DNA from: a virus
Virus record (IMG/VR): IMGVR_UViG_3300025121_000045
Span: 1-64,000 of that record
Reading direction: 5' to 3' (one strand)
Length of the DNA: 64,000 nucleotides
Made by a program: the position numbers and the translations under genes. Shown here piece by piece: positions 12,381 through 15,233 of this stretch (within the stretch, counting starts at the first letter, position 1; the number at the start of each line of letters is the position of its first letter). The notes under the pieces were generated by a model, which saw only the letters and a list, made by a program, of their open reading frames with translations, was not told where the DNA came from and ran no database searches.

Positions 12381-12427
12381 CGACATAAAGGGTTTAGAGT
12401 TGACCTTATGTCGATTATAACAACTCT
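12381..12427 (+). ncRNA. H-type pseudoknot element, copy 1
   Basis: CGACATAA/TTATGTCG and AGAGTTG/CAACTCT. Confidence 0.75.
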
Positions 12428-12429
12428 TT

Positions 12430-12503
12430 GGGTCCATAGTTCAATGGTAGAACATCTGGCTCTTAACCAGACTACGAAAGTTCGATTCTTTCTGGACCCA
12501 CCA
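12430..12503 (+). tRNA. tRNA-Lys(CTT)
   Basis: Canonical cloverleaf, loop CTCTTAA, CCA. Confidence 0.93.
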
Positions 12504-12524
12504 ATGTTTTTAATGTGGTAATGA

Positions 12525-13262
12525 ATGGTTTGTATAAAGTGTGGGTTAAATTTCCCTCATCTCTTGATGATAAAAGGTAGACAAGAAGATTTAAGTAATA
12601 GGGTATATTGTTTATCTTGTTGTCCTTTTGGTATTAAAAATATTAGAGATTTCGTAGATCCTTTAAATGAAGAAACAGAAGTTGAAATAGATTTTAGAGG
12701 AACATTTAAACGAGCTTTAGTAATAGCTATGGGTAACAAATGTGCCATATGTGGTTACAAGGCTACAATACAAGCTTTATGTATTCATCATATAGATCCG
12801 TCCAAGAAAACATTTAGTTTTGGATCCTATAATGTGTTGAATTTCGAAAAATATAACTTGGAGATGAAAAATTGTTTGTTATTATGTCTTAATTGTCATT
12901 CAGAAATACATTCTAAACATATCCCAGAAGAAAAAGTTTTAGAAGTGTATAAGCCAGAGTTGTATAAAACTTTGGTCGCTAAGAAAAGACTTTTAAAAAA
13001 GGTTTACCCTATAGTAGATTGCAAAGTTTGTAATAAACAATATCAACCTTCTACGGGAAACCAAAAGTATTGTTCTAATGAATGTCAAAGTATCGGTAAG
13101 AAGAAGTTTGACATAACAAAAATAAAATTGGAACTCTTAATAAGAGAGAAACACCCTGTAGAAATAGGGAAGTTATTTAATGTATCAGAAGCAAGTGTAA
13201 GGAAAAGATGCGAGAAATATGGAATTTCATATAAAAAGAAATACATGAAAGTCAGAAATTAG
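12525..13262 (+). CDS. HNH homing endonuclease, paralog of 11741
   Basis: GNKCAICGY..ALCIHHIDP..CLLLCLNCH; same C-terminal HTH. Confidence 0.85.
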   Translation: MVCIKCGLNFPHLLMIKGRQEDLSNRVYCLSCCPFGIKNIRDFVDPLNEETEVEIDFRGTFKRALVIAMGNKCAICGYKATIQALCIHHIDPSKKTFSFGSYNVLNFEKYNLEMKNCLLLCLNCHSEIHSKHIPEEKVLEVYKPELYKTLVAKKRLLKKVYPIVDCKVCNKQYQPSTGNQKYCSNECQSIGKKKFDITKIKLELLIREKHPVEIGKLFNVSEASVRKRCEKYGISYKKKYMKVRN

Positions 13263-13266
13263 ATAT

Positions 13267-13344
13267 GTGACGGTGGCCAAGTCTGGTTAAGGCTCTGTGC
13301 TGATAACGCAGAAACCGGAGGTTCAAATCCTCCCCGTCACACCA
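13267..13344 (+). tRNA. tRNA-Ile(GAT)
   Basis: Loop CTGATAA, acceptor GTGACGG/CCGTCAC, CCA. Confidence 0.92.
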
Positions 13345-13351
13345 AGTTTTA

Positions 13352-13397
13352 GACGTACAAGGTTTAGGGTTGACTGTACGTTGAATATAACAACCCT
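13352..13397 (+). ncRNA. H-type pseudoknot element, copy 2
   Basis: GACGTACA/TGTACGTT and AGGGTTG/CAACCCT. Confidence 0.75.
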
Positions 13398-13399
13398 TT

Positions 13400-13476
13400 G
13401 GGCAGGTAGTTCAACAGATTAGAATGTCGATCTCTTAAATCGAAAGATGTGGGTTTGACTCCCACCCAGCCCACCA
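13400..13476 (+). tRNA. tRNA-Lys(CTT)
   Basis: Loop CTCTTAA, CCA; one A.A mismatch in acceptor. Confidence 0.8.
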
Positions 13477-13480
13477 AGTA

Positions 13481-13882
13481 TTGGAGTTTAGAGTGTTATT
13501 ACATAGAAGCACAGTAGATGCATGTATTAAAGCCTTAGAGGCTTATAGTGAATCTTTAAAGGGTGTTGAAAGAGATCATATTATAGGGTTGATATGTGAG
13601 CTAGAAGGAGAAGCTTCTAACATGGGTCATATATCTTATGATCCTACGTATCCAGATTTTGTGGAAACAAAATGGGGTTATGAAGTTAGTTTGGACACGG
13701 TAGGGCCAAACGTTGTTCAAGTAATGAAATTAATAAGAGAAACAGTTGGTTTAGAACTACAAAAGCTACAGGCAATGATACGTAGTGTACCCGCAATTCT
13801 TTTATCCGAAATGAGTAAAGAAGACGCGGAATGTATAAAGCAAAAGTTTGAAGCTGTTGGGGCTACAGTATCTTTTAAGTGA
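13481..13882 (+). CDS. protein with ribosomal protein bL12 (L7/L12) C-terminal domain
   Basis: YEVSL..VG.N.VQVMKLIRE.VGL.L.....P..L....SKEDAE.IK.KFEAVGATV. Confidence 0.8.
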   Translation: MEFRVLLHRSTVDACIKALEAYSESLKGVERDHIIGLICELEGEASNMGHISYDPTYPDFVETKWGYEVSLDTVGPNVVQVMKLIRETVGLELQKLQAMIRSVPAILLSEMSKEDAECIKQKFEAVGATVSFK

Positions 13883-13902
13883 GTCCATATTCCATCTAAA
13901 TA

Positions 13903-14103
13903 ATGGATCTTTTGTTCCGTGTATATAACATGGAGGACGTTATGGAAGAAAAAGCTAGATTGGTATGGTGTAAAGGTACTTGGCCAGAAGACAATTATGA
14001 GGATTTTAAGGTTTTCCAGGTTCGTCCAGATGAAACTGACGAAGATGCCTTTAAACGGGCAGAGGAAGCGTATAGCGTAGAGAATGAGTTTTATATTAAG
14101 TAA
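13903..14103 (+). CDS. small acidic protein
   Basis: GGAGG SD before internal ATG (likely true start ~13942). Confidence 0.55.
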   Translation: MDLLFRVYNMEDVMEEKARLVWCKGTWPEDNYEDFKVFQVRPDETDEDAFKRAEEAYSVENEFYIK

Positions 14104-14108
14104 TATCT

Positions 14109-14193
14109 GGGGTCGTGGTATATCGGCTGTACACCGGACTTTTAATCCGTGACCGAAAGGTCTAGGTAGGTTCGACTCCTACCGGCCCAACCA
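14109..14193 (+). tRNA. tRNA-Lys(TTT) with long variable arm
   Basis: Loop CTTTTAA, V-arm GACC-GAAA-GGTC, CCA; G1.A72 mismatch. Confidence 0.8.
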
Positions 14194-14202
14194 TGTTAAT
14201 TT

Positions 14203-14278
14203 GGGTCCTTAGCTCAGCAGGTAGAGCATCTGGCTTTTAACCAGAGGGTGCCCGGATCAAGACCGGGAGGACCCACCA
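14203..14278 (+). tRNA. tRNA-Lys(TTT)
   Basis: Loop CTTTTAA, CCA; T-loop ATCAAGA. Confidence 0.9.
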
Positions 14279-14351
14279 AACTTGTCTTATGTTATTTTTG
14301 CACTAATGTTTTTGTATAAATCCTCATATGTAAATTAATTTGAGGATTTAT

Positions 14352-15095
14352 ATGAGAATTAGAACAAGTCCTATATGGGATCTTCCAAAAGAAGAGTTTG
14401 AGTCTTTAGTAGCAAAGAGTGAAACTTTTACAGCAATATTAGCTCATGTTGGATTACGAAATATCGGCCATAATTGGAAAACTCTAAGAACCCGACTTTT
14501 AGAAGATGGAATAGACTTTAGTCATATAGGTACTGGTCGTACTTGGGCAAAAGGTAAATTTTTTAGAAGAGCTTCAAATGAAGAAGTTTTTGTAAAAGGT
14601 CCTGGTTACGGCAAAAGTCATATAAAAGAAAGAATAATAAAAGAAAACCTATTATCATATATATGTGCTAATTGTAAACTAGAGCCAGTTTGGAATGGTG
14701 AAAAATTAGTTTTGCATTTAGACCATATTAACGGTGACGGAACTGATGACAGATTAGAGAATTTAAGATTTTTATGTCCTAACTGTCACAGTCAAACAAA
14801 AACTTATACAGGTAGGAATAAAATACTAGGAAGGCATGTTCCAAAATATTGTATAGATTGTAATAAACAGGTATCTCATAATCAATATGATAGATGTTTT
14901 TTATGTTCTCAAAAATGGAGAGGTTTAACACAGAGAAAATTTGACCCCTCAAAAGAGGAGTTAGAAAATTTAGTAAAGTCTAATTCTATAATAGACATAG
15001 GATTGATGTTTAATGTGTCTGAAGCTGCTGTAAGGAAAAGATGTGAGCTTTTAGGCATACTGTATAAGAAAAAAGATTTAAAAATGCGCCTCTAG
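14352..15095 (+). CDS. HNH homing endonuclease
   Basis: LHLDHINGDGTDDRLENLRFLCPNCHSQT; C-terminal HTH; stop codon inside tRNA-Arg. Confidence 0.9.
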   Translation: MRIRTSPIWDLPKEEFESLVAKSETFTAILAHVGLRNIGHNWKTLRTRLLEDGIDFSHIGTGRTWAKGKFFRRASNEEVFVKGPGYGKSHIKERIIKENLLSYICANCKLEPVWNGEKLVLHLDHINGDGTDDRLENLRFLCPNCHSQTKTYTGRNKILGRHVPKYCIDCNKQVSHNQYDRCFLCSQKWRGLTQRKFDPSKEELENLVKSNSIIDIGLMFNVSEAAVRKRCELLGILYKKKDLKMRL

Positions 15096-15161
15096 CTCAA
15101 CGGATAGAGCAAGGGTTTACGAAGCCCAAGACGGTGAGTTCAATTCTCCCGAGGCGCTCCA
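15086..15161 (+). tRNA. tRNA-Arg(ACG)
   Basis: Loop TTACGAA, acceptor GCGCCTC/GAGGCGC, CCA. Confidence 0.85.
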
Positions 15162-15185
15162 GACGATTATATTAAGACCTCGTCC

Positions 15186-15233
15186 TAACATCAGAACTAT
15201 AAGGTTGGCCTGATGTTAAGTATTTTCAACTTT
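15186..15233 (+). ncRNA. H-type pseudoknot element, copy 3
   Basis: TAACATCAG/CTGATGTTA and AAGGTTG/CAACTTT. Confidence 0.7.

Follow-up and report, generated by a model that had tools for sequence, protein, structure and literature searches.

The stretch of DNA analysed in this study (the window) covers 64 kb from the start of the 72.8-kb IMG/VR virus record IMGVR_UViG_3300025121_000045. CheckV gives the record a completeness of 16% at this length, so the record is a fragment of a very large phage. The window carries 14 tRNA genes, all on the plus strand between 10287 and 15310, of which six are tRNA-Lys and four are tRNA-Arg (ARAGORN). Within this array lie three related elements of approximately 47 nt, also on the plus strand, which we call E1 (12381-12427), E2 (13352-13397) and E3 (15186-15233). 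Each of them can form an H-type pseudoknot, and each stands directly before a tRNA gene. The copies are dispersed, with 970 nt between the starts of E1 and E2 and about 1,835 nt from E2 to E3.

All three elements occur in the same kind of unit, in which a gene for an HNH homing endonuclease is followed by a tRNA or a tRNA relic, then by the knot and then by a tRNA, all on the plus strand. Unit 1 consists of HNH-1 (11762-12340), an HNH-type homing-endonuclease-like open reading frame (ORF) with paralogs in the other two units, a tRNA-Ile relic (12341-12373), E1 and tRNA-Lys(CUU) (12430-12503; ARAGORN, 75.3 bits in Rfam). The HNH-1 stop codon lies 40 nt upstream of E1, and between the two there is nothing processable, only the relic, which keeps the 3' half of a tRNA (T arm, 3' strand of the acceptor stem and CCA), lacks the 5' half and receives no ARAGORN call. 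By a repeat comparison, this relic and the 3' half of the tRNA-Ile in unit 2 are paralogs. Unit 2 consists of HNH-2 (12525-13262), whose stop codon is 4 nt upstream of tRNA-Ile(GAU) (13267-13344; ARAGORN and Rfam), a 7-nt spacer, E2 and tRNA-Lys(CUU) (13400-13476; ARAGORN, 60.7 bits). Unit 3 consists of HNH-3 (14340-15095, with a likely ATG at 14352), tRNA-Arg(ACG) (15086-15161; ARAGORN), E3 and tRNA-Arg(UCG) (15236-15310; ARAGORN, 59.7 bits). The HNH-3 protein passes the Pfam HNH cut-off (E = 1.5e-4), and the identities to HNH-2 are 54% for HNH-1 and 32% for HNH-3. The end of HNH-3, with its final three codons and its stop codon, overlaps the first 10 nt of tRNA-Arg(ACG) and thereby the 5' strand of the acceptor stem (15086-15095).

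The position of the knot relative to the following tRNA is constant. In all three copies, the last paired base of the knot is followed by TT (12428-12429, 13398-13399 and 15234-15235) and then by base 1 of the tRNA, so that on the RNA the last base of the knot is -3 relative to the tRNA and UU occupies -2 and -1. This exact 2-nt spacing before two tRNA-Lys(CUU) and one tRNA-Arg(UCG) had been pointed out in the initial annotation, and ARAGORN and the Rfam tRNA matches agree on it. The upstream side varies: the distance from the preceding CCA to the knot is 7, 7 and 24 nt for E1, E2 and E3, and the upstream neighbours differ. The same annotation had placed each knot just downstream of a tRNA-type CCA end. 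This was right for E2, which follows tRNA-Ile(GAU), and for E3, which follows tRNA-Arg(ACG), but for E1 only the relic 3' half is present. Its estimate of a released RNA of about 55-75 nt agrees with the spacers of 56, 55 and 74 nt that we measured from the preceding CCA (12373, 13344 and 15161). Because the TT spacing is fixed, the CCA distance is variable and unit 1 has only a relic upstream, the knot is tied to the start of the downstream tRNA rather than to the upstream tRNA.

The fold predicted for the three copies is the same, and the coordinates and letters proved to be as first described for the pseudoknots at 12381, 13352 and 15186. A hairpin with a first stem (S1) of 8-9 bp carries an apical loop of 15-17 nt, 7 nt of which are complementary to a strand lying 7-9 nt 3' of the hairpin and form the second stem (S2) with it. 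In E1, S1 pairs 12381-12388 with 12406-12413 (8 bp), S2 pairs 12396-12402 with 12421-12427 (7 bp), and the loops L1, L2 and L3 have 7, 3 and 7 nt. In E2, S1 pairs 13352-13359 with 13375-13382 (8 bp, one G.U), and S2 pairs 13366-13372 with 13391-13397. In E3, S1 pairs 15186-15194 with 15210-15218 (9 bp), and S2 pairs 15201-15207 with 15227-15233 (one G.U). The loops of the three copies range over 6-7 nt (L1), 2-3 nt (L2) and 7-9 nt (L3). In such a fold L1 crosses the deep groove of S2 and L3 the shallow groove of S1, and by rules of thumb the lengths are adequate for both. The longer spacer of E3 contains an additional predicted 5-bp hairpin (15162-15184, plus strand), which appears in the minimum free energy (MFE) fold only and has no counterpart in E1 and E2. 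Neither ARAGORN nor the Rfam tRNA model RF00005 gave a tRNA call over E1-E3 themselves.

Covariation was measured on a MAFFT alignment of the three copies from this one genome, with 16 pairs (nine in S1 and seven in S2) and thus 47 pair cells. Paired cells numbered 46 of 47 (97.9%), and eight of the 16 pairs were changed on both sides (6/9 in S1, 2/7 in S2), which bears out the original impression that S1 keeps its 8-9 bp through sequence change and that S2 covaries. Only two of 500 column shuffles matched the observed values. When the 3' partners were slid by 1-3 columns as a control, 28-47% of the cells were paired, with 0-1 compensated pairs. RNAalifold, a program blind to pseudoknots, recovered S1 unaided. 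In single-sequence folding, S1 was in the MFE fold of E1 (z = -3.1) and E3 (z = -2.2), and in E2 it was in the centroid only (z = -0.6). The duplex energies were modest, from -7.8 to -9.6 kcal/mol for S1 and from -4.2 to -9.3 kcal/mol for S2. A topology scan of the plus strand of the 72.8-kb record for helices of 7+7 bp returned seven loci, three of which were E1-E3, and the bare topology is therefore not rare. Three homologous copies with compensated changes, at the same place relative to a tRNA, are not due to chance. We believe that E1-E3 form a classical H-type pseudoknot, both helices of which are backed by covariation.

Some other readings of the same letters were dropped. An extension of S1 seen in the MFE fold of E1 was not kept in E2 or E3. 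Conserved words of the form TTGRCY...TATWWY recall a sigma-70 promoter, but their spacing is 10 nt and the promoter scan found nothing there. A terminator was also rejected, as E1-E3 show no G+C-rich stem followed by a T run. The pseudoknot candidate at 62937 from the topology scan is really a long hairpin and then a T run. This perfect hairpin and its T run (62936-62978) lie between two ORFs and are followed by a GGAGGA site and an ATG, as in an ordinary terminator-like site.

Units 1 and 2 are old duplicates, as 12334-12444 matches 13305-13414 at 76-77%. Within this duplicate every S1 difference is compensated, and the tRNA-Lys(CUU) bodies downstream have diverged. Since all S1 differences are compensated in a region where E1 and E2 are 76% alike, while the downstream tRNA bodies drifted apart, the knot appears to be under selection. 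Over the elements, the listed pieces of four runs (three groundwater samples, two studies) had identical letters and added no population covariation; the listed pieces of X6 leave 13349-13388 uncovered.

The repeated neighbourhood also raises the question of whether the elements act as DNA. They might belong to the HNH homing cassettes, for example as a target, a junction or a flank that is co-converted, and have no RNA function of their own. All three copies stand about 40-100 nt downstream of paralogous HNH genes, and recombination scars are abundant nearby, namely the tRNA relics at 12341-12373 and about 11609-11650. The interleaved complementarity, the compensated changes and the G.U pairs point to RNA instead. 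The G.U pairs in S1 of E2 and S2 of E3 would read A.C on the opposite strand, and a minus-strand topology scan misses E3; this asymmetry favours an RNA of the same sense as the tRNAs over a DNA palindrome. Moreover, many large phage contigs carry relatives of HNH-1, HNH-2 and HNH-3 between their tRNA genes. We confirmed 53 such loci (L003-L055), most of them with several tRNAs, and in these other phages the homologous HNH genes show no such element. We therefore regard a DNA-level passenger as very unlikely. The HNH family of these units seems to be specialised for tRNA arrays. At HNH-3, the GAGGA ribosome-binding site lies within a 15-bp inverted repeat (14315-14352, 8-nt loop, 93% complementary) that extends to the likely ATG. 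Translational sequestration is known for phage homing endonuclease genes, and this repeat looks like a further case of it.

The sequence conservation between E1 and E2 is uneven: L1, S2 and L3 are kept while S1 turns over, and the S1 sequence is not conserved among the copies. This pattern suggests sequence-specific recognition, such as that of a released small RNA of 55-74 nt which acts in trans as a decoy or sponge for a protein or RNA of the host or the phage. Processing would free a discrete, end-protected RNA, and regulatory RNAs from tRNA spacers exist in E. coli. Against this, the loop sequence of E3 has little in common with that of E1 and E2, and the three copies differ, unlike repeat-type antitoxins. 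There is no tandem repeat array over the elements, and no Rfam match at E <= 1 covers the knots. We consider a trans-acting RNA unlikely as a whole. Its more specific form, the mimic of a type III antitoxin (ToxI) proposed in the initial annotation, found no support, for the same lack of tandem repeats, because no Rfam family matched at E <= 1 (including those of antitoxin RNAs, provided that Rfam contains them), and also for the unconserved S1 sequence; we rate it as extremely improbable. A gene for a ToxN/AbiQ-type endoribonuclease was absent among the matches listed for 46 ORFs (25 of 44 families in one listing), although a phage mimic needs no toxin gene. Of the other functions suggested at the outset, the exonuclease roadblock and the RNase P-linked ideas, conjectural as they are, fit the anatomy best.

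We then looked for the element elsewhere. In the region 9000-17000, Rfam at E <= 1 gave tRNA-type matches and no family covering the knots. One weak match, to a small nucleolar RNA model on the minus strand (15221-15280, E = 0.28), reached 22 bits where the cut-off is 50 and touches the last 13 nt of E3. A covariance model built from the three copies (R1) scored E1 at 81 bits, E2 at 77.6 bits and E3 at 74.6 bits, and the next match in the window had 14 bits. At E < 1, R1 found nothing in 64 loci (497,761 bases) comprising phage tRNA arrays with homologous HNH genes and neighbourhoods of seryl-tRNA synthetase genes, and nothing in five phage records, three of which are complete huge-phage genomes of 360-554 kb. 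The covariance-model search of phage sequences and Rfam for homologs, which had been put forward together with the pseudoknots, thus matched only the three source copies. A pattern scan of IMG/VR returned at least 114 stretches, and among the matches listed only two loci hold any tRNA, neither of them adjacent; two further IMG/VR scans returned 0 stretches and one stretch without a tRNA. The scan of metagenome contigs (JGI/ENA) returned six stretches, none of which was followed by a tRNA. In GTDB, with one genome per species, none of 41 stretches adjoined a tRNA, and many of them were copies of a single stretch that recurs in Bacteroidota and elsewhere and resembles a conserved coding region. 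No description of the element was found in the parts of the literature searched, passages of PMC10690425 among them. The element family is new, as it is absent from Rfam and from every collection scanned, and within these collections the sequence family is an orphan confined to this phage.

It could still be that knots of other sequence commonly precede phage tRNAs. We scanned 418 tRNA-upstream regions from HNH-linked arrays, nine of them from this window. A strict scan gave eight matches, compared with 0-5 in 20 shuffles. In a scored scan, four regions reached a score of 36 or more (E1-E3 and one in L017), compared with 0 in five shuffled sets. There is no clear general enrichment of knots before tRNAs in HNH-linked arrays. 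The candidate in L017, an IMG/VR contig of 49 kb, is a strong H-type pseudoknot candidate unrelated to E1-E3, at 633-679 with helices of 8 bp and 7 bp, 4 nt upstream of tRNA-Val(UAC). It sits in another phage tRNA array that also carries an HNH homolog.

The constant 2-nt spacing places the knot beside the expected site of RNase P, which cleaves at the tRNA 5' end universally for bacterial tRNAs. Two kinds of function can be imagined there, one for the tRNA and one for the RNA in front of it. For the tRNA, a knot at -3 and upstream would slow, time or condition the 5' maturation of tRNA-Lys(CUU) and tRNA-Arg(UCG) by RNase P. The bacterial RNase P protein contacts the leader at about -4 to -8, which is normally single-stranded, and this speaks for such a gate. 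The exact spacing and the UU at -1 and -2 in all three copies also agree with it, although they would suit a cap equally well, and the element goes with the downstream tRNA and not with the upstream one. As tRNA-Lys and tRNA-Arg make up 10 of the 14 tRNAs in the array, a regulated supply would be suitable. On the other hand, only three of the 14 tRNAs have a knot, and it is missing from a third tRNA-Lys(CUU), at 10368. Very short leaders do not prevent cleavage by RNase P RNA, so occlusion of the leader may matter little. We regard a leader gate as possible but rather doubtful. In a stronger version the knots would be switches: with the leader buried up to -3, tRNA-Lys(CUU) and tRNA-Arg(UCG) would be held as a latent reserve refractory to RNase P and released only on demand, for instance upon depletion of Lys and Arg tRNAs by anticodon nucleases of the host. 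The 10 Lys and Arg tRNAs would suit this as well. Regulated tRNA maturation by a pseudoknot in cis was not found described in the portions of the literature that the search covered, and the switch, together with the release that it implies, seems to us highly doubtful.

For the RNA in front of the tRNA, we tentatively favour, with rather less than even confidence, the reading that the knots are 3' caps which protect the RNA left after RNase P has cut at the downstream tRNA. E1-E3 would be transcribed as parts of a polycistronic tRNA/HNH array of a huge phage. Cleavage by RNase P at the tRNA 5' end would then leave an upstream product that ends in the knot and a 2-nt UU tail. Bacterial 3' exonucleases (RNase II, PNPase and RNase R) depend on single-stranded 3' tails of roughly 7-10 nt for engaging an RNA. 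A tail of 2 nt is below this requirement, so such an RNA end should be long-lived, and the structured end would offer 3'->5' exonucleases no grip. RNase P would thus serve as the 3'-end-forming enzyme and the knot as the 3' cap.

The capped RNA would not be the same in the three units. In unit 1 it would be the message of HNH-1. Once units 2 and 3 are fully processed, it would be the spacer RNA of 55-74 nt, the 5' end of which may be made at an AU-rich stretch just past the upstream CCA. The AU-rich words found there, AGAUUU and AGUUUU, look like cut sites of the RNase E type when set beside the known consensus, and cleavage at them may free the upstream tRNA. In unit 3 the capped RNA could also be the HNH-3 message, as an uncut RNA of HNH-3, tRNA and knot. 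Because HNH-3 terminates 10 nt into tRNA-Arg(ACG), a message cut there by RNase P would have no stop codon. RNase P processing and complete translation of HNH-3 are therefore mutually exclusive on one RNA molecule, and the uncut message would be needed for the full HNH-3 protein.

Several points weigh against the cap. Units 2 and 3 have a complete, good-scoring tRNA between the HNH gene and the knot, so RNase P should sever the message from its cap there, and what is left is a short spacer RNA that has no evident purpose. The exonucleolytic 3' trimming of the upstream tRNA would also be hindered by a knot in its 3' trailer. The sequence conservation of the loops and S2 between E1 and E2 is not needed by a mere structural cap; this conservation and the use of a capped spacer RNA are left unexplained. 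Finally, the covariation rests on very few events in three copies of one genome, and some of these could be single template-switch mutations.

An end-protecting function may also be imagined in the other direction. In the manner of an exonuclease-resistant RNA (xrRNA), the knot might block a 5'->3' exonuclease of the RNase J type and so shield the downstream tRNA or set a 5' end. The layout is that of class 3 xrRNAs, with a stem-loop, pairing of the apical loop with the 3' tail, a length of about 45-55 nt and a 7-bp pseudoknot. However, there is no Rfam match, the features of coremin are absent, and the conserved inner hairpin of class 3 is not evident. A tRNA hardly needs such protection, and its leader is removed by RNase P anyway. 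We consider this block quite unlikely.

If the cap is real, phages use the host enzyme for tRNA 5' processing to form 3' ends, with a tiny pseudoknot guarding what remains. It would explain how homing endonuclease genes inside tRNA arrays, which are otherwise chopped quickly, obtain usable messages. The 50-nt combination of knot and tRNA could then be a portable module for stabilising RNAs in bacteria.

The surroundings of the units show some further features. Several of the 14 array tRNAs are sequence-diverse paralogs, and two of them (10368-10448 and 14109-14193) have long variable arms, judging by their ARAGORN lengths. The 55-nt gap upstream of the tRNA-Ile(GAU) at 11664 contains a second tRNA relic (11609-11650), which has a T arm, an acceptor-like stem and a CCA end and folds as a minihelix; the word AGTTT... 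comes next, as after the CCA before E1 and E2. Starting 12 nt past tRNA-Arg(UCG), the sequence 15323-15397 is tRNA-like, with 23.3 bits in the Rfam tRNA model against a cut-off of 29 and no ARAGORN call, and its anticodon-loop word would be CCA by eye. An ORF at 13481-13882, within the array, has a ribosomal L7/L12 C-terminal domain (E = 2.7e-15). Its database relatives at E <= 1e-3 were limited to one protein, which is 99% identical and probably from the same phage.

Besides the L7/L12 C-terminal-domain protein, the window encodes a seryl-tRNA synthetase, a ribonucleotide reductase, a PAS histidine kinase and replication proteins. The histidine kinase (6286-8568) has three PAS-type matches, and its N-terminus matches the N-terminal domain of the ethylene receptor ETR1 (E = 7e-9). 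DNA of the window was found in six runs, which represent three groundwater samples from two studies. Among GenBank phages, searches by megablast and blastn gave no near match, or chance fragments only (E >= 1). Close relatives of the phage were sought with the seryl-tRNA synthetase, for which the best match had 54% identity and was not syntenic, and with the L7/L12-like protein and the ribonucleotide reductase, for which none was found.

Several known RNA systems resemble E1-E3 in part. The coremin or xrRNA-C element has two hairpins, the first with 3-5 bp and a YGAD or YGNNAD loop, and between them a conserved spacer of 8-10 nt (PMC6546385, PMC10520033). E1-E3 are likewise small structured viral RNA elements, but each YGAD or YGNNAD word in them has only 0-1 flanking pairs, and the core word of the coremin spacer is absent from all three. 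Class 3 xrRNAs of plant viruses have a pseudoknot of 3-9 bp; the stem-loop/3'-tail layout is the same here, with a pseudoknot of 7 bp, and the likeness is one of layout only (PMC11702639). Unlike these xrRNAs, E1-E3 match neither a sequence core nor an Rfam model. Class 3 xrRNAs act against 5'->3' exonucleases in eukaryotic hosts, and this differs from the setting of E1-E3.

Among systems of bacteria and their phages, ToxI-type RNAs are encoded beside a toxin gene as near-identical units of about 36 nt repeated in tandem, and phages can carry ToxI mimics. E1-E3 are also small RNAs predicted to form pseudoknots, but they are three dispersed and diverged copies without a tandem array or a model match. 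The species 1 and 2 RNAs of T4 and the tRNA-spacer sponges of E. coli are stable non-tRNA by-products of tRNA operons, freed by tRNA-processing enzymes. The knot RNAs would similarly come from polycistronic tRNA precursors, but the sizes and folds of those RNAs differ from the knots, and we know of none among them that has been described as a pseudoknot abutting an RNase P site.

MALAT1 and MEN-beta have 3' ends that are made by RNase P and protected by structure, with a triple-helical element directly upstream of a tRNA-like RNA. That system is eukaryotic, and its structure is a U.A-U triple helix built with an A-rich tract, whereas E1-E3 are predicted to be H-type pseudoknots, in which the longest A run is 2-3 nt and no A-rich tract for a triple helix of the MALAT1 type is present. 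The downstream partner here is a real tRNA and not a tRNA-like RNA, and the protection is putative. What E1-E3 have in common with MALAT1 and MEN-beta is a compact structure immediately 5' of the presumed RNase P site, and if the cap is real, the logic of MALAT1, known from eukaryotic RNA, is present in a bacterial virus. The principle of a structure-protected end beside an RNase P site is already known, and the sequence family is new and tiny; what is new here is that the knot goes with homing-endonuclease units and that in one of them, unit 1, a message would be what the knot caps.

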